Below are positions 3,817 through 58,737 of a DNA stretch of 64,000 bases, piece by piece. This DNA comes from Escherichia phage 308Ecol101PP. Each line of letters begins with the position of its first letter. The first letter of the stretch is position 1. Position numbers and translations under genes: made by a program. The notes beneath the pieces were generated by a model, which worked only from the letters and a program-made list of their open reading frames with translations, had not been told where the DNA came from and made no database searches. Location of the stretch: the sequence record OR062945.1. The stretch is one strand, 5' to 3'.

Positions 3817-5385
3817 TTAGATGCCTTTTACATATACACGGCGGAAGTAAGCGTTCTTACCAAGGCTGTTCAGGATAGACGGCATACCGGACTGGATGCG
3901 AGCACCTGGAGCCTGCAGGGAACTTTCAGCAAACGGGTTAACACCGATACCGTAACGAGTTTTAAAGCCCATTACCGGCTGGAAGTTCTTAGGATCGGAA
4001 CCACGCAGTGGGGTAAGTGCAACGTAAGGAGCATAGTAAATACCTGCATCCATTTCGTTAGCGCCTTTGTAACCAACGGTGAAGTAATCCTGTTTAGCAT
4101 ACTGGTCGATGTATACGCGGTATTTACCACCAAGTACACCGGCAAATACGGACTTAGTAGTGTCGGTATTAAAACCAGAAGCCAGACCCTGTGCAGCATA
4201 AGAAATACCAGTATCAACTGAAGCCAGTACGTTAACTACGTTACGGGAAGCGATAATGAAGTTACCTTCACCACGACCGGTTTGACGAGCAATTTCAACT
4301 GCTTCTTTATCAATCTGGAACAACAGAGATTTAAAGCTTTCACCGGCCCAACGAGCACCACGGATATCAATCGGGTCCTGGAAGTCAAATACACCAGCTT
4401 TAGAACCCGGAGTCAGGGTCATACCAGATTTACCAACCTGTGCTGAGTAGTTAATCCAATCAACAACTTCACGGTTGATTTCTAGCATAATTTCTGTAGC
4501 CAGAATACCGCTCAGTTCAGCATCAGCATCCATACCGTGTACTGCACGGAGGTCTTGTGCTAATTCGATAGAGTAAGCAGCTTTCAGCTGGCGAGATTTA
4601 GCTTCAATAACTTGTTTATCGATACGGAAGCCCATTTCATTCCATGGGTTATCGGTAGAACCGTTGAAACCTTCCTGGAGTTCAGCGATAGAAGTAGCCA
4701 TACCTTCAGCGATTTCTACCAGTGCACCAGCTTCCATTTGTTTCTTAACTTCTGCATCTAATTTAGCTGCATCAGTTGCACCAGAATCAAGTGTTACGAT
4801 AGCAGAAGCTTGCAGATATACAGTACCAGTTTCTTGGAAGAAGTGAGTATAGATATCACCTACAACAGTAGTAGTGTCAGCAGCCAGAGCTGGGAATTTC
4901 TTAGCAGCACCCTGACCAGAGAACATCGCGTCTGGGGCATACATCGGATGGAAAGCTTCTTTAGCGCCAGCAGCGATAGGGTCTTTACCATATACTGCAC
5001 GGAGAGCAAATACCTGACCGGTCGGGCTGTTCATAGGCTGAACACCACAAATATCAAAAGCGATCAGATTAGGAATAGCACGTCGAACCATACCCATAAC
5101 TGCCGGCCCAATTTGGGTTACTGCACCAGAGGTTTGACCCGCTGCGATGTTCTGAGCATTATAACCATGGTCACCGCCAATTTCAGCTTCGGTCAAGAAA
5201 GAACCAAACGCCTGAGCGATTTTCTCGTCTTTATATTCAGGGGATACTTCGAAATCTTTTTCCTGGTTTTCGAAGATTTTAGCGATAATAGCCTGCTTGC
5301 TATTAGCGATTTCCGGCAGGCCTTCACCTTCCAGCAGTTCTTTCCATTTGTCTACGAGCTGAGCTTTAGTTTTGATAGTAGTCAT
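3817..5385 (-). CDS. 23: major capsid protein gp23
   Basis: 522 aa; near-identical along full length to recalled T4 gp23 (MTTIKTKAQL...FRRVYVKGI). Confidence 0.97.
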   Translation of the reverse strand: MTTIKTKAQLVDKWKELLEGEGLPEIANSKQAIIAKIFENQEKDFEVSPEYKDEKIAQAFGSFLTEAEIGGDHGYNAQNIAAGQTSGAVTQIGPAVMGMVRRAIPNLIAFDICGVQPMNSPTGQVFALRAVYGKDPIAAGAKEAFHPMYAPDAMFSGQGAAKKFPALAADTTTVVGDIYTHFFQETGTVYLQASAIVTLDSGATDAAKLDAEVKKQMEAGALVEIAEGMATSIAELQEGFNGSTDNPWNEMGFRIDKQVIEAKSRQLKAAYSIELAQDLRAVHGMDADAELSGILATEIMLEINREVVDWINYSAQVGKSGMTLTPGSKAGVFDFQDPIDIRGARWAGESFKSLLFQIDKEAVEIARQTGRGEGNFIIASRNVVNVLASVDTGISYAAQGLASGFNTDTTKSVFAGVLGGKYRVYIDQYAKQDYFTVGYKGANEMDAGIYYAPYVALTPLRGSDPKNFQPVMGFKTRYGIGVNPFAESSLQAPGARIQSGMPSILNSLGKNAYFRRVYVKGI

Positions 5386-30693: not shown

Positions 30694-32427
30694 TTACCCA
30701 ATATCAATACGAGATCCGTCAACAGTGTATTGTCCTGAAGCTACTGAGCTCATTGTAGACATTGTTTCTGCCCAATCCCCGGCAACAGTCATATCAACAT
30801 TACCATTAACAGTCCATTTAACGTTTCCGTTGACGGTGTAATCATGATTCCCTTCGACCTGAGTTTTAGCATCACCTTTAACAAGAATATCTGCATTTCC
30901 GTCAACGACTATTTTGATATTACCCTTAACGTAAAGAGTTCCATCGCCTTCAACAGTTTTATATTGGTTACCACGAATAAAGATTGTGTCATTGCCGTCT
31001 ATTTGATGGAGGCGGTCTGCCATGTTATAATATATTTCATTAGCACCAACGTTAACAAGTTTATCACCAGAAATCAAGAAGTTCCCATCGCCATTAGTGA
31101 TGTCAAAAAGGTCTTCTACAGTTTTACGAGTACGACGCCCAGACGGAGAAACTTCCTCATATGACCCTGTTGGATGAACTAAGCGATAACGTTCATTACC
31201 TGGAGTATCGTCAAATTCTTGGATATGACCGCTTTCTGTTTCCATAGCATGAACGTATGGATACTCACCACGATAACTTGATTCCGGTTCTTTAAAAAGG
31301 ATGCGTGAATCTAACGGAACAGGAGGACCAGCTGGGTCTTCTGGATCGGTATTTCTAGTAACTAAATCGGCACCAACTCCCGGTGAAGGTGGTGTTTTAA
31401 CAGGAACACCGTATGATTCCATGTTACCAGTTAAAATAATTGTTGTTACACGTGAAGCACGCCCTTTAGTCTGTTGGAACCATAACGAATCACGCCCAGA
31501 TTTGTATGCGGTTTTCCAATCACCTGTGGCCATTGCTTTAAGCATAGTATTGAATTTTGCTACACCGCCAACGCCCATCTGGAAGCACATGTTTTCTAAT
31601 GCCATTTGGCGAGATCTGTTCATTTTGGCATAAACAGGACCTACTTTAGAATTAGAACGAATGTCTTTCTGCATCTTAGCAAGGTCCTTCTCAAATAATG
31701 CTGTTGCTTCTTCTAATGTAATAGTTCCGGGATTTCCTGTTACTTCACGCCCTACTTGATCAGATAACAATTTATTAATTCGAGACATATCTCGGGTCTT
31801 TTCCATTACGATAAGGTGTCCAATACCTACTGTAGGATATCCGAGATGGTCCCAATACACTTTATCACGAAGACCTTCGTCACGACGTAACATTTCTGTT
31901 ATTGTAAAATTAGGGTCATCATCTTCTGGAATATTTGCTAAATCTGTATCATCTGGGTTTATACCATAATCCAAGTTGTTATCTTGAATTACGTTAGAGT
32001 TCGAATAATAACCAGCTTCACCACCTTGGTTTAATACGTTCGTATCACTACCTAAACGTCGCGGATACTGACCTGTCGGATCTGAAAAACCTTCAAGTTT
32101 ATTAGGCTTTTCACGTACAATTCCGCCATATGTACCAAGTACAATCCCGTTTGTTTTCCATTTGTCTAAGAAATGACCATATACTCGAGTTCCTTCAACA
32201 GGACCTGTAACAGAACCACCAATACCTGACATTGATGCAGACGTAATAGGTTGAATAACAGTCATCCATGGAAGTTTTTCTGTAGGAATACCTTGTACAT
32301 CACCTTGTGCTCTCTGTGCCGGATGAAGACCAACGACTCGAACTCGAACTCGCCCTTGTTTTAATGGGTCCATTCTGTCCTCGACAACACCCACGAACCA
32401 ATTAAGGCTGCTGCTAATCATTTCCAT
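30694..32427 (-). CDS. 5: baseplate hub / tail-associated lysozyme gp5
   Basis: 577 aa; N-terminus MEMISSSLNWFVGVVEDRMDPLKQGRVRVRVVG matches T4 gp5. Confidence 0.95.
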   Translation of the reverse strand: MEMISSSLNWFVGVVEDRMDPLKQGRVRVRVVGLHPAQRAQGDVQGIPTEKLPWMTVIQPITSASMSGIGGSVTGPVEGTRVYGHFLDKWKTNGIVLGTYGGIVREKPNKLEGFSDPTGQYPRRLGSDTNVLNQGGEAGYYSNSNVIQDNNLDYGINPDDTDLANIPEDDDPNFTITEMLRRDEGLRDKVYWDHLGYPTVGIGHLIVMEKTRDMSRINKLLSDQVGREVTGNPGTITLEEATALFEKDLAKMQKDIRSNSKVGPVYAKMNRSRQMALENMCFQMGVGGVAKFNTMLKAMATGDWKTAYKSGRDSLWFQQTKGRASRVTTIILTGNMESYGVPVKTPPSPGVGADLVTRNTDPEDPAGPPVPLDSRILFKEPESSYRGEYPYVHAMETESGHIQEFDDTPGNERYRLVHPTGSYEEVSPSGRRTRKTVEDLFDITNGDGNFLISGDKLVNVGANEIYYNMADRLHQIDGNDTIFIRGNQYKTVEGDGTLYVKGNIKIVVDGNADILVKGDAKTQVEGNHDYTVNGNVKWTVNGNVDMTVAGDWAETMSTMSSVASGQYTVDGSRIDIG

Positions 32428-47741: not shown

Positions 47742-48230
47742 ATGAATATATTTGAAATGCTTCGTAATGACGAAGGTCTTAGACTGACTTTATACAAAGA
47801 CACTGAAGGCTTTTGGACAATTGGCATAGGTCATTTAGTAACAAAGAACCCGTCTTTAGCTGTAGCTAAAGCTGAACTTGACAGAATGATCGGGCGTAAA
47901 TGCAACGGTACAATTACCCTTGATGAGGCTGAAAAGTTATTTAATGAAGACGTTGATAAAGCTGTTCGCGGAATCTTGGGTAATGTTAAACTTAAACCGG
48001 TATATGATTCTTTAGATGCGGTTCGTCGATGTGCATTGGTCAATATGGTCTTCCAAATGGGTGTAGCAGGCGTCGCTGGTTTTACTAATTCTCTTCGTAT
48101 GCTTCAACAGAAACGTTGGGATGAAGCGGCAGTAAATCTAGCACAATCTAAATGGTATCGTCAGACACCTAATCGCGCGAAACGCGTAATCTCAACATTT
48201 AAAACAGGAACTTGGAAAGCGTATATATGA
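47742..48230 (+). CDS. e: lysozyme (endolysin)
   Basis: 162 aa [31 protein letters not shown]..., near-identical to T4 lysozyme; GGGAGG RBS. Confidence 0.96.
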
Positions 48231-50663: not shown

Positions 50664-51026
50664 ATGAAAGCATATCAAATTCTTGAAGGCACACACAAAG
50701 GCACTATTTATTTTGAAGACGGTACTCAAGCCCGGATTATTGTCTCTAAGACTTTTAAAGAAGACGCTATTGTAGACCCGGAAATTTTCTACGGTTTGAA
50801 TGCCCGTGAAATTGAAATTGAACATCAACCTAAAGTTAAAATTGAAGGTGGTCAACACCTGAACGTTAACGTTCTGCGTCGTGAAACTCTGGAAGATGCA
50901 GTTAAGCATCCGGAAAAATATCCGCAGCTGACCATCCGTGTATCTGGTTATGCAGTTCGCTTTAACTCTCTTACTCCAGAACAGCAGCGCGACGTTATCG
51001 CTCGTACCTTTACTGAGAGTCTATAA
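50664..51026 (+). CDS. grcA: autonomous glycyl radical cofactor (GrcA/YfiD-like)
   Basis: 120 aa; C-terminal half ...[59 protein letters not shown] carries the RVSGY glycyl-radical motif. Confidence 0.9.
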
Positions 51027-51229
51027 TGGCTAAATTGATTATAGAAGGGACTGAAGATGTTTTAAAATGTTTTGCCGCCTGGTTTAGTTGCTCAGGCGAG
51101 CAATCATTCATTGAAGCATTTAGAATGGGTGATATTACTGGAAAATATCCGTCAACCGATATCACTGTACGCGGATATGGTATTAATGAGCCTATCCAAT
51201 TGGTCGAATATGACCCTTGCCACCGATGA
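51026..51229 (+). CDS. hypothetical protein
   Basis: 67-aa ORF, TAATG coupling. Confidence 0.45.
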   Translation: MAKLIIEGTEDVLKCFAAWFSCSGEQSFIEAFRMGDITGKYPSTDITVRGYGINEPIQLVEYDPCHR

Positions 51230-51240
51230 GGAAATTCCTT

Positions 51241-51507
51241 ATGTCGATTGAAGACATCAAAGGCTACAAGCCACATACCAATGATAAAATCAGTAAAGTG
51301 AACGCTATTAAAGACGCAGAAGTCCGTCTTGGATTGATGTTTGATGCTCTGATTGAAGAAGCATATATCTTGAAAGAAAATGAATCAGAGCAACAAACCA
51401 AAGAAGATATGGATGCAGTGCAGGCTCTTAAGTATGCTAAGCAACATCTAAAAGAAGCCAGCATGTGGGCATGTCGTGCAGTATTTCGACCTGAGGAAAA
51501 ATACTAA
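51241..51507 (+). CDS. hypothetical protein
   Basis: 88 aa from ATG after GAGGAAA RBS. Confidence 0.5.
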   Translation: MSIEDIKGYKPHTNDKISKVNAIKDAEVRLGLMFDALIEEAYILKENESEQQTKEDMDAVQALKYAKQHLKEASMWACRAVFRPEEKY

Positions 51508-51783: not shown

Positions 51784-52242
51784 ATGACTATCAATTCAGA
51801 CGTTTTTATCCGCCGCAATAAACTCCGTCGAATCTTTGAAACGGAGTTCCGCAAAATAAATGCCGGTATAAAAGATGCTGCAAAGTCTCTTGGACTACCA
51901 GGCTTTCATATCAAGTATTCTCAACATCTCTTAGATCGTGCCATCCAGAGAGAAATAGATGAGAACTACGTTTTTGAATTATTTCGTAAAGTAAAAAATC
52001 ATGTTAAAGAAGTTGCAGAATTTTTATCAATGCCGGCACGTCCAGATGTTGATGAAGATTTTGTCGAAGGTGTCGAATACCGTCCAGGCCGTTTAGAAAT
52101 AACTGACGGAAATCTTTGGTTAGGACTTACAGTTTGTCGCGAAAATCCAGCATTCAAAATGAAGACTCTTCAATGCAGAATGGCTATTATTAACAGTAAA
52201 CGACTACCAGGAAAAGCTTCTAAAGCAGTGATTAAAATCTAG
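51784..52242 (+). CDS. regB: endoribonuclease RegB
   Basis: 152 aa; size, position near tk/denV and recalled similarity to T4 RegB. Confidence 0.7.
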   Translation: MTINSDVFIRRNKLRRIFETEFRKINAGIKDAAKSLGLPGFHIKYSQHLLDRAIQREIDENYVFELFRKVKNHVKEVAEFLSMPARPDVDEDFVEGVEYRPGRLEITDGNLWLGLTVCRENPAFKMKTLQCRMAIINSKRLPGKASKAVIKI

Positions 52243-52250
52243 AGGTAAAC

Positions 52251-52793
52251 ATGAGAAAAGCACTACTCGCTGGTCTATTTGCTCTTTCATTATCAGCACA
52301 TAGCTCCGAGCATACTTTTAGTAATGTCCAACTCGATAACTTGAATTATGCTTATCAGTTTGGGGAACAGTTTTCTAAGGACGGAAAATTTAAAACGCAT
52401 GAAAATATGCATAAGAAAGGACTTGGATACATAATGGCCGCAATACTATGGCAGGAATCATCTGCCGGTATTAATCTTAAAGATAAGAAAGGTCACCATG
52501 CGTATGGAATGTTCCAAAATTATCTACCAACAATGAGGGCAAGAATTAACCAGCTTGGTTATAATATGACTGATGCCCAAATTAAGAAAATGCTATCTAA
52601 GCGGTCTAATTCAGCCAGATGGGCTTATATCGAATTTTCTTATTGGTTAAATATACATAATGGGGATATAAGAAAAGCTATATCCTCATATAATGCGGGA
52701 TGGAAGACAAGTGCTGGAAGTAAATATGCTTCTGAAGTCCTAGAAAAGGCTAATTACCTTAAATCAAACAAACTACTGGAAATAAAAGAATGA
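52251..52793 (+). CDS. exported lytic transglycosylase-like protein (SLT/GH23 motifs)
   Basis: 180 aa; signal peptide MRKALLAGLFALSLSAHS; WQESS, AYGMFQ and YNAG motifs. Confidence 0.55.
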   Translation: MRKALLAGLFALSLSAHSSEHTFSNVQLDNLNYAYQFGEQFSKDGKFKTHENMHKKGLGYIMAAILWQESSAGINLKDKKGHHAYGMFQNYLPTMRARINQLGYNMTDAQIKKMLSKRSNSARWAYIEFSYWLNIHNGDIRKAISSYNAGWKTSAGSKYASEVLEKANYLKSNKLLEIKE

Positions 52794-53137
52794 CCAAAAT
52801 GTTGGCTTTAATAGTTGGCTTGGTTTCATTTAACGCTCTTGCTAATACTACATATACTGATGTAACGGAGTATACAAACAGAACAGCGTCTGATTATTGT
52901 GGTAAAAGTCAAGAGTGTAAAGTAGATTTTTCACAAAAATTGTTATATGCGTATAAAGACGGAGAAAAAGATGGGGCGTCTAGTAGGTTCAAGGCGTCTA
53001 CCTTAATTAAAAGATACTATAAAAAATGGCAAATATTAGAATGCTCGGTGGCGGAACCTAAAGATAAGGCAGCATGCAATTCTATGGTGGACCGTCTAGT
53101 TGACTCTTATACTAGAGGACTTGCAGCAAGTGATTAA
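52790..53137 (+). CDS. exported Cys-containing small protein
   Basis: 115 aa; signal peptide MTKMLALIVGLVSFNALA; four Cys. Confidence 0.5.
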   Translation: MTKMLALIVGLVSFNALANTTYTDVTEYTNRTASDYCGKSQECKVDFSQKLLYAYKDGEKDGASSRFKASTLIKRYYKKWQILECSVAEPKDKAACNSMVDRLVDSYTRGLAASD

Positions 53138-53597
53138 AAACTATATCAAGGGCGATATTGTCGCCCTGTTTTCTAAAGGTAATAATATCGCTCATGGGTG
53201 TAATTGTTTTCATACAATGGGCGCCGGCGTGGCAGGACAATTAGCAAAGGCTTATCCAAAAATTCTGGAAGCCGATAAACTTCAAACCGAATTTGGAGAC
53301 GAGTCTAAACTCGGGACTTATTCGGTTTATGAAAAATATTTTAAGACCCATAAAGCTTATTGCTTTAATCTTTATACACAGTTTGAGCCTGGACCTAATT
53401 TTGAGTACTATGCTTTAATGAATTGTATAATAGAATTAAATGAATTCGGAAAGAATAAGATAACAAAGCCTGTACTTTATATGCCAAGAATTGGTGCAGG
53501 TATCGGTGGCGGAAACTGGGATGTCATCGAAGAGATTTTAGATACGTATTCCACTAAACTAGAAATTGTGATTGTTGATTGGGAACCATTATTATGA
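53130..53597 (+). CDS. macro-domain-like protein (start uncertain; longest frame begins at TTG 53100)
   Basis: IAHGCNCFHTMGAGVAGQL and RIGAGIGGGNW resemble macro-domain Gly-rich motifs. Confidence 0.4.
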   Translation: MIKNYIKGDIVALFSKGNNIAHGCNCFHTMGAGVAGQLAKAYPKILEADKLQTEFGDESKLGTYSVYEKYFKTHKAYCFNLYTQFEPGPNFEYYALMNCIIELNEFGKNKITKPVLYMPRIGAGIGGGNWDVIEEILDTYSTKLEIVIVDWEPLL

Positions 53598-55031: not shown

Positions 55032-55334
55032 ATGGCCTTAAGAGCGATAGCTGTCATGGCGATGCTGGGGTTTTTTGCAGCAACAACTCCTATCGTTGGT
55101 ACTGCGTACACTGACCCATATTTTGATAACTTTATGGAATCAGGGATTAAAAACGTATATACTTTGTTTGAAATTCAAAATGTCGAGAATTCTGAAAAAT
55201 TCTATAAGTATATGGCAAAGCATTACAAAAATAGCCCCTGTGATGATGCATTTGAATGTCATGAACAAGGCATAAAAACTGCCAGACAATTTGCCGAGTT
55301 CATGAAAATAAAATTAGAGCCTACATCTATCTAA
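55032..55334 (+). CDS. exported small protein
   Basis: 100 aa with N-terminal hydrophobic signal-like segment. Confidence 0.5.
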   Translation: MALRAIAVMAMLGFFAATTPIVGTAYTDPYFDNFMESGIKNVYTLFEIQNVENSEKFYKYMAKHYKNSPCDDAFECHEQGIKTARQFAEFMKIKLEPTSI

Positions 55335-58473: not shown

Positions 58474-58737
58474 ATGAAAAAATTGGTAATTGGTTTATTC
58501 GCAGTAATGATGGCATTCTCTGTTGGTGCTACCACGGGTGCAGCCGGCGGTAACCAGTCTTCTGGGCCTTCTAATGGTTCGGTAAATGCATCACATTCTC
58601 AGGGTATTGAGAACATTAAATCAAGCTATATTAATAGCACGGCCGGACAAGCAACTGAAGCATGGTCAAAGGGACGAGTAGTTACTCGCTCCGTATTCTG
58701 TGATATGCCTAATTATGTTGCTAAGTGCGATAAGTAA
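58474..58737 (+). CDS. exported small protein
   Basis: 87 aa; signal peptide MKKLVIGLFAVMMAFSVGA. Confidence 0.5.
   Translation: MKKLVIGLFAVMMAFSVGATTGAAGGNQSSGPSNGSVNASHSQGIENIKSSYINSTAGQATEAWSKGRVVTRSVFCDMPNYVAKCDK

Follow-up and report, generated by a model that had tools for sequence, protein, structure and literature searches.

We report here that Vs, a protein of T4-type phages annotated as a modifier of the cytoplasmic valyl-tRNA synthetase (ValRS), belongs to a family that shows the hallmarks of exported proteins in every member examined, and that its gene sits against the upstream gene vs.1, whose product is supported by modelling as a small, single-domain, lysozyme-fold enzyme of the GH23 type, likewise predicted to be exported. 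Both genes lie in a 64,000-nucleotide (nt) stretch of Escherichia phage 308Ecol101PP (sequence record OR062945.1; the whole stretch is called the window below). We propose a tentative model, to which we would give somewhat less than an even chance, in which the two products form a periplasmic module made of an early exported GH23 enzyme, Vs.1, and an exported control subunit, Vs. The coordinates of all features are collected in Table 1.

The two open reading frames (ORFs) are almost certainly the orthologues of T4 vs.1 and vs. The window comes from a Mosigvirus-type T4-like phage, the 3.8 kb around the pair being 98 to 99% identical to phages JS09, APCEc01, and SCS57, and T4 and the Mosigvirus records share the gene order regB, vs.1, vs, tk.4, tk.3, tk.2, tk.1, tk, rI.1, and rI. 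The window Vs.1 and Vs are 99 to 100% identical to deposited Mosigvirus sequences, and tblastn hits came from 2052 phage records for the 180-amino-acid (aa) protein and from 795 for the 115-aa protein. Gene order, signal peptides, motifs, and cysteines are the same in T4 and in the orthologues of JS09, APCEc01, SCS57, RB32, and IME08; T4 differs in nothing of substance except an overlap of 8 nt between the genes, compared with 4 nt here, and a fifth Vs cysteine, which lies inside the signal peptide. Both genes are thus already catalogued T4-type genes, and the pair adds nothing as a gene call. A preliminary description of this DNA, made from the sequence alone, had placed the two ORFs and their ATGA overlap correctly; it missed the known T4 identity of the pair, the earlier publications on the SLT similarity, and the annotation of the second product as a valyl-tRNA synthetase modifier. 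Labels in the databases are themselves uneven, as the vs.1 orthologues of GenBank records MK962757 (JK45), LN881729 (slur04), MK972699 (SS9), MW021754, and others are mislabelled "endoribonuclease RegB," and Vs is frequently annotated "valyl-tRNA synthetase," as though it were the enzyme itself; one publication indeed treats Vs as a phage-encoded synthetase (PMC10698182).

The enzymatic nature of Vs.1 is argued by its motifs, its family membership, and its predicted fold. The three motifs WQESS, AYGMFQ, and YNAG, which the preliminary description had picked out as GH23/SLT hallmarks, are all present. In an alignment of 44 diverse homologues, E69, G86, Y147, N148, G150, and Y159 are invariant, and conservation is 90% or higher at W67 and S71; S70 is nearly invariant in a 12-sequence alignment. 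No invariant Asp was found among the 44 homologues, and the 180-aa window product has no Cys. The single invariant catalytic Glu without a conserved Asp makes Vs.1 lytic-transglycosylase-like, and its chemistry, as far as the alignment tells, would be more transglycosylase-like than goose-lysozyme-like. The protein falls in PHROG 600 (E = 3.7e-67). The Pfam SLT family (PF01464) matched the window protein with 18.8 bits (E = 0.0013), under the gathering cutoff of 21.3; this family, and no other, was matched by 39 of the 44 homologues at an E value of at most 0.01 (best, 1.3e-7), and a precomputed PF01464 match exists for many homologues. The best PDB sequence match of a 12-sequence profile was EtgA, a transglycosylase of type III secretion (E = 0.0014), with goose-type lysozymes scoring more weakly.

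The AlphaFold model of Vs.1 (mean predicted local distance difference test score [pLDDT], 91.9) shows a helix at residues 59 to 70 that terminates at the catalytic E-S motif. Its top Foldseek matches in the PDB are all GH23 proteins, namely, a Ralstonia chitinase, MltD, Slt, P5 of phage phi6, and LtgA (entries matched include 8rhi for MltD, 6fcq and 5ohu for Slt, and 3w6e for the GH23 chitinase), with probabilities of 0.97 to 1.0, E values of 0.014 to 0.3, and moderate template-modelling scores of ~0.45 to 0.53. The SLT fold anticipated in the preliminary description is, therefore, the one that the model returned. The window also encodes an orthologue of the e lysozyme and a segment that is gp5-like by position only, so that Vs.1 would be a third muralytic gene product, distinct from both, as had been suggested.

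Part of this was already in the literature. A marginal but consistent SLT match of vs.1 was described in six T4-like genomes by Nolan et al. in 2006 (PMC1524935), corroborating earlier PSI-BLAST matches of the T4 protein to lysozymes. More recently, Belin et al. (2024) wrote of "vs.1, encoding an exported lysozyme," and used its product as a toxic protein under PBAD control, with reference to a PhD thesis from Geneva of 2009 (PMC11434276). Publications of 2003 and 2006 had already noted the resemblance of vs.1 to SLT, and export and toxicity of its product are on record as well; both agree with our assignment of the first protein as an exported GH23/SLT-type enzyme of the lysozyme fold.

The signal peptides of both proteins were assessed with a crude home-made heuristic (charge of the n-region, an h-region of ~10 to 15 aa, and small residues at −3/−1), not with SignalP. 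The N termini of Vs.1 and Vs each combine a basic n-region, a hydrophobic core of 12 to 13 residues, and small residues at −3/−1. Of the 61 plus-strand, ATG-initiated window ORFs with 80 aa or more, only 4 passed, i.e., Vs.1, Vs, the known periplasmic antiholin rI (55032 to 55334), and an ORF at 58474 to 58737, in keeping with the exported pair of the preliminary description. The last of these ORFs, on the plus strand, encodes 87 aa with a clear signal peptide (MKKLVIGLFAVMMAFSVGA followed by TTG), and belongs to PHROG 2243 of unknown function; apart from it and the pair, the 61 ORFs tested include no unexplained candidate for export. The pattern extends over both families: the heuristic was passed by 41/44 Vs.1 homologues, the sequence varying and the pattern being kept, and by 48/49 Vs homologues, in which the first ~20 residues vary freely around the same pattern. 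A signal peptide likewise opens each of 20 further Vs family representatives, and a lipobox occurs in two Vs homologues (LSGC in P0179 and LLAC in P0185). Since T4 Vs itself begins with a signal peptide (MTKILVLCIGLISFSASASA followed by DTSY), the trait is not peculiar to 308Ecol101PP. Export of Vs.1 and Vs and cleavage of their signals are thus predicted, and Vs would be extracytoplasmic, as suggested by signal peptides throughout the family, by its lipobox variants, and by the invariance of four cysteines. A ValRS modifier is expected in the cytoplasm, where Vs, judged by sequence prediction only, would not belong. Our literature search found no published comment on the Vs signal peptide.

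The same conclusion is suggested by the cysteines of Vs. The protein has exactly four Cys (C37, C43, C85, and C96), and among 49 aligned sequences, some sharing as little as ~22% identity, only these four, L103, and G110 are invariant; the four Cys are also kept in all 20 family members beyond this set. The AlphaFold model (pLDDT, 86; >90 excluding the signal peptide) consists of four helices and brings one Cys pair to each of two helical turns, so that each helix-turn-helix hairpin would be stapled by one disulfide. The preliminary description had named an exported partner with four Cys, and sequence prediction supports an exported, Cys-stabilized protein. Mature Vs is predicted to have 96 aa and 10.9 kDa (11.0 kDa for the T4 counterpart). 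Vs falls in PHROG 1256 (E = 5e-35), and a protein 98% identical to it carries a precomputed match to Pfam PF26829 ("ValRS_modifier"). The family is small: an HMMER scan of 1.84 billion protein representatives returned only 25 members, all single-domain proteins of 77 to 134 aa, and no fusion ("Rosetta stone") protein was found among these 25. Foldseek comparison of the Vs model with the PDB gave no match with E < 0.4 and no solved structural relative, the Vs profile matched PDB sequences by chance only, and a Pfam scan of the 49 homologues gave no match at E values up to 1. Relatedness of Vs to Spackle, Ivy, PliC, MliC, PliG, or LprI (DUF1311) was rejected, as nothing of the kind came from the PDB profile search, Foldseek, or the Pfam scan.

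The link between the two genes was examined in a synteny survey of IMG/VR loci anchored on vs.1, Vs being too divergent for a conserved peptide pattern. A same-strand Vs gene was found in 64 of the 79 loci with a vs.1 homologue, at a gap of −8 to +7 nt in 56; Vs lies 0.5 to 1.2 kb downstream of vs.1 in eight RB43-like loci, with a separation of 1.8 kb in L097, and it is absent from 15 loci, mostly Kuttervirus-like. Among 60 unique loci that contain Vs, the vs.1-vs junction was intact in 51, the two genes being −10 to +10 nt apart, compared with 43 for regB-vs.1 and 22 for vs-macro, and eight adjacent vs.1-vs pairs have neither flanking neighbor. Upstream of Vs, an SLT gene lies no more than 2.5 kb away in every sampled locus, including those with divergent Vs on metagenomic contigs. 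Vs without an upstream vs.1 gene was never seen among the sampled loci, whereas vs.1 without Vs does occur. The adjacency and co-occurrence of vs.1 and vs exceed general synteny. Moreover, Vs.1 proteins with a Vs partner have 17 to 27 aa before the catalytic helix and mostly zero or one Cys, and partnerless Vs.1 proteins have 9 aa before the helix and two to four Cys.

Several loci of this survey are of interest in their own right. An Aeromonas T4-like contig of 173.6 kb (L071) has the order regB, vs.1, a 75-aa ORF, a 146-aa ORF, and macro, with no detectable Vs; the 146-aa ORF (3856 to 4296 of the locus) is an unrelated lipoprotein-like exported ORF with a Cx10C pair that fills the Vs slot. 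A third ORF with a signal peptide directly follows Vs in Klebsiella phage JD18 (L005, 2309 to 2701; 130 aa) and Acinetobacter phage PhT2 (L007, 2282 to 2707; 141 aa), giving three exported proteins in a row. In IMGVR_UViG_3300045988_066415 (L087, 2776 to 4117), a vs.1-family gene is followed by the gene of a 125-aa protein with an N-terminal transmembrane segment and a coiled coil, which is overlapped by the gene of a 104-aa lipoprotein (LLAGC box), an arrangement resembling an i-spanin/o-spanin pair; this vs.1-family member may act as a secreted endolysin within a lysis cassette.

Published insertion data point to a second link between the genes. We used the HIDEN-SEQ preprint (10.1101/2025.11.20.689424), Extended Data Tables 6 (S8; T4) and 7. 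In T4 grown in lysogeny broth (LB), vs and vs.1 had 26.6 and 22.6 reads per site, against 179 for regB, 652 for vs.3, 290 for tk.4, and 767 for tk.3. In M9 glucose, vs had 5.0 reads per site (log2 fold change, −2.19; adjusted P reported as 0.00000), which makes it the most depleted T4 gene in this medium relative to LB, and vs.1 had 11.9 (log2 fold change, −0.87; P = 0.0055; adjusted P = 0.155), with neighbors little changed (626 for vs.3, 275 for tk.4, and 754 for tk.3) and regB up to 403. In phage Bas37, the values were 23.5 for vs and 73.8 for vs.1, with neighbors at 324 to 618. The same preprint classes vs and vs.1 as nonessential in T4, reports that deletion of vs impairs plaques in M9 only, and argues that polar effects are not widespread (10.1101/2025.11.20.689424). 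As these values show, vs.1 insertions, like those in vs, are ~4- to 20-fold underrepresented compared with all flanking nonessential genes in T4 and Bas37, the text of the preprint naming vs only, and vs.1 and vs together are a small fitness island among neutral neighbors. Loss of vs.1 is thus itself costly, which argues that Vs.1 is useful and more than a toxin; a toxin-antidote reading with a useless toxin is disfavored, as vs.1 insertions are depleted in two phages and the authors argue against general polarity. Since both M9 and Bas37 show a heavier cost for the loss of vs than for that of vs.1, and Vs.1 is toxic alone, Vs is preferably seen as a restrainer or director of Vs.1 over a mere activator. 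The fitness data are compatible with partial polarity or with an independent role of Vs. Taken with the conserved adjacency, the shared fitness effects favor a link between vs.1 and vs.

In the module that we propose, Vs.1 would carry a Sec signal peptide that is cleaved off and would act in the periplasm. Vs would be translated from the vs.1 message via the overlapping stop and start codons (TGA at 52791 to 52793 and ATG at 52790 to 52792), would likewise be exported, and would fold into a four-helix protein of ~11 kDa. There, it would serve as a periplasmic control subunit, most probably restraining or targeting Vs.1, which would allow early murein remodelling without the damage seen when Vs.1 is made alone. 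What we infer from the data above is a physical contact of the two proteins, together with the direction of the control and its physiological purpose. The preliminary description had also suggested that the partner could be a regulator, a reasonable conjecture that collides with the existing annotation, and had named lysis timing or exclusion among the conceivable roles of the enzyme.

Known systems offer parallels to such a module. The GH23 enzymes of secretion systems (EtgA, whose rod partner is EscI, and the VirB1, IpgF, and IagB types) are, like Vs.1, single-domain, Sec-exported proteins of ~150 to 190 aa, with the E-S, G-x-x-Q, and A-Y-N-x-G motifs in common, and the activity of EtgA is controlled by a small helical partner. 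EtgA, however, is only marginally similar to Vs.1, which is encoded in a phage early region and not in a secretion apparatus; its rod partner EscI has no detectable relation to Vs; and the Asp of EtgA and goose-type lysozymes is not among the invariant columns of Vs.1. The GH23 (PF01464) domains of Slt70, MltD, and goose-type lysozymes match Vs.1 in fold and catalytic motifs, whereas Vs.1 lacks accessory domains, superhelical or LysM, and the Vs.1 of Vs-containing lineages has an extra conserved segment of 10 to 18 aa before the catalytic helix. The T4 protein Spackle (gene 61.3), a small, helical, Cys-containing periplasmic protein with a signal peptide, inhibits the gp5 tail lysozyme, and the logic of a small periplasmic Cys protein beside a lysozyme-fold enzyme is the same for Vs and Vs.1. 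Ivy, PliC/MliC, PliG, LprI/DUF1311 (helical, with four conserved Cys), and the type VI Tsi proteins share the concept of an enzyme with a cognate periplasmic binder; proteins of these types were absent from the structural searches with Vs. Secreted and signal-arrest-release (SAR) endolysins are, like Vs.1, exported muralytic enzymes dangerous to their producer, from which Vs.1 differs by its nonessential gene in the early region, the coexisting e lysozyme, and a cleavable-looking signal. A SAR endolysin is an unlikely identity for Vs.1 given the short h-region (13 aa), the A-x-S site, and the separate e lysozyme.

A number of observations weigh against the proposed module. The ATGA overlap is by itself weak evidence for coupling, since close packing is common to the early genes of T4 and vs overlaps the gene of the cytoplasmic Tk.4 too. 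The extra Vs.1 segment tracks the presence of Vs, but a single evolutionary event probably accounts for this, and the Vs.1 of the Aeromonas contig has the long precatalytic segment but no Vs. Mirror-tree comparison of Vs.1 and Vs (r = 0.67; partial, 0.17; 45 loci) gave a correlation no higher than that of control pairs (RegB, Tk.4, and Tk). Vs has no fold or sequence likeness to known lysozyme or transglycosylase inhibitors in the PDB, Foldseek, and Pfam searches, and metal binding, in place of disulfides, is conceivable for its four Cys. Finally, classical biochemistry and genetics assign vs to a factor of ~10 kDa, tau, that binds the cytoplasmic ValRS, vs mutants having reportedly been isolated through loss of the urea-stable ValRS.

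Should the classical assignment hold, Vs would be the tau factor on cytoplasmic ValRS, Vs.1 would be an independent exported muralytic enzyme, and their adjacency would be due to T4-type gene packing; this we find rather unlikely, together with its corollary that the N-terminal signal of Vs is inefficient, bypassed, or dual-purpose. The annotation is consistent across records, Pfam, and PHROG, and the strong depletion of vs in M9 and the M9-only plaque defect of the deletion suit a role in aminoacylation when valine is synthesized, which the minimal-medium phenotype fits at least as naturally as a periplasmic role. The weaker effect of vs.1 in M9 could be partial polarity on vs, and the absence of a coevolution signal and the overlap with tk.4 also agree with two unrelated functions. 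The predicted size of mature T4 Vs is near the ~10 kDa reported for tau; this match, however, requires signal cleavage and hence export. The signal peptides, lipoboxes, and invariant Cys are unexpected for a cytoplasmic factor, and the Vs family is never without a nearby vs.1 among the sampled loci. Moreover, Vs is by far the fastest evolving of five neighboring genes (mean distance, 1.03 versus 0.33 to 0.56, i.e., two to three times faster) and is only ~25% identical between some Escherichia coli phages, which face the same highly conserved ValRS. N-terminally His-tagged full-length T4 Vs formed inclusion bodies in E. coli (PMC8076793), an insolubility in the cytoplasm that is as expected from a masked signal peptide and unformed disulfides. 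The biological role of ValRS modification is given as unknown in the HIDEN-SEQ preprint (10.1101/2025.11.20.689424), and our search of the recent literature found no data on a Vs-ValRS interaction. Read the opposite way, Vs would be no cytoplasmic translation factor but a subunit of Vs.1 in the periplasm, stapled by disulfides and serving control or immunity, which we consider less likely than not; jointly with it, the association of tau with ValRS would go back to another small ORF of the tk-regB region, to a complex formed only after cell breakage, or to a secondary activity.

Both proteins could also be periplasmic and independent, with a murein enzyme of the host, some component of the envelope, or the enzyme of a superinfecting phage (as with T4 Spackle and gp5) as the target of Vs, which we regard as improbable. 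Predicted export of both proteins, the arms-race-like evolution of Vs without coevolution with Vs.1, the separation of the two genes in the RB43-like loci and L097, the unrelated exported ORF in the Vs slot of the Aeromonas contig, and the greater harm of vs insertions in M9 and Bas37 would all suit such a target. The occurrence of Vs only with vs.1 among the sampled loci, vs.1 itself being found without Vs, and the status of vs.1-vs as the best-kept junction of the neighborhood speak against it, as does the absence of Spackle and other inhibitors from the structural matches of Vs. As a special case of the periplasmic module, Vs.1 might be a secreted endolysin for final lysis, with Vs as its antidote until the holin acts. 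The spanin-like pair directly after the vs.1-family gene in L087, the label "lysozyme" in some records of the family, the toxicity of Vs.1 expressed alone (PMC11434276), and rI ~2 kb downstream are in line with this; we nevertheless consider it very improbable, as the phage has its own e lysozyme, vs.1 stands among early genes between regB and tk, and vs.1 is nonessential in T4 whereas t is essential.

The genes around the pair fit a T4-type early region. The GTG start of tk.4 at 53130 overlaps vs by 8 nt, an overlap usual among T4 early genes, and tk.4 is the anti-DarT2 factor AdfM according to the HIDEN-SEQ preprint (10.1101/2025.11.20.689424). A hairpin at the 5′ end of tk.4, with an 8-bp stem of which 5 pairs are GC, coincides with a terminator annotated in the same stretch of a related record and may attenuate transcription past regB-vs.1-vs. 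A promoter scan found 15 candidates, compared with 16.8 expected in shuffled sequence, i.e., no enrichment. Farther upstream on the plus strand lie an orthologue of vs.4 (51217 to 51507; Acb2/Tad1-hairpin protein, Pfam PF24729, E = 4e-17) and vs.6 (50664 to 51026), which encodes a GrcA-like glycyl-radical protein; vs.4, vs.6, and tk.4/AdfM are counterdefense or metabolic genes.

Table 1. Features of the vs.1-vs locus and related genes in the window
Feature	Position	Strand	Basis
vs.1 orthologue, 180 aa, predicted exported GH23/SLT-type murein-cleaving enzyme	52251..52793	+	82% identity to T4, PHROG 600, Foldseek
Predicted Sec signal peptide of Vs.1, aa 1-18, MRKALLAGLFALSLSAHS followed by SE	52251..52304	+	n/h/c heuristic; cleavage site inferred
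WQESS, catalytic-Glu motif (E69), aa 67-71	52449..52463	+	E69 invariant in 44 homologues
AYGMFQ, GH23 motif II (G86, Q89), aa 84-89	52500..52517	+	G86 invariant, Q89 at least 90% conserved
YNAG, GH23 motif III, aa 147-150	52689..52700	+	Y147, N148, G150 invariant
vs orthologue, 115 aa, four-helix, 4-Cys, predicted exported, annotated "valyl-tRNA synthetase modifier"	52790..53137	+	67% identity to T4, PHROG 1256
Predicted Sec signal peptide of Vs, aa 1-19, MTKMLALIVGLVSFNALA followed by NT	52790..52846	+	n/h/c heuristic; cleavage site inferred
First Vs Cys pair (C37, C43), turn between helices 1 and 2	52898..52918	+	Invariant in 49 sequences; AlphaFold helices
Second Vs Cys pair (C85, C96), turn between helices 3 and 4	53042..53077	+	Invariant in 49 sequences; AlphaFold helices
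Shine-Dalgarno-like GAGG, 5 nt 5′ of the vs.1 ATG	52242..52245	+	Read from sequence
ATGA overlap of vs.1 stop and vs start	52790..52793	+	Read from sequence
regB endoribonuclease gene, directly 5′ of vs.1	51784..52242	+	Pfam REGB_T4, E = 8.8e-69
tk.4/adfM macrodomain gene, directly 3′ of vs	53130..53597	+	Pfam Macro, PHROG 335
Terminator-like hairpin and T-run, 12 nt past the vs stop, within the tk.4 5′ end	53149..53177	+	Consensus scan only
e-lysozyme orthologue	47742..48224	+	81% identical to T4 e
Second T4-lysozyme-like segment, probably the gp5 lysozyme domain	31411..31902	−	40% identity; gp5-like by position only

Our study sheds light on a localization paradox of Vs and on a fitness signature that vs shares with vs.1, which are its useful product and, for now, a modest lead. 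If Vs is indeed a subunit of Vs.1, this would reassign the function of a T4 gene known for ~50 years and would define a new family of transglycosylase-binding proteins.

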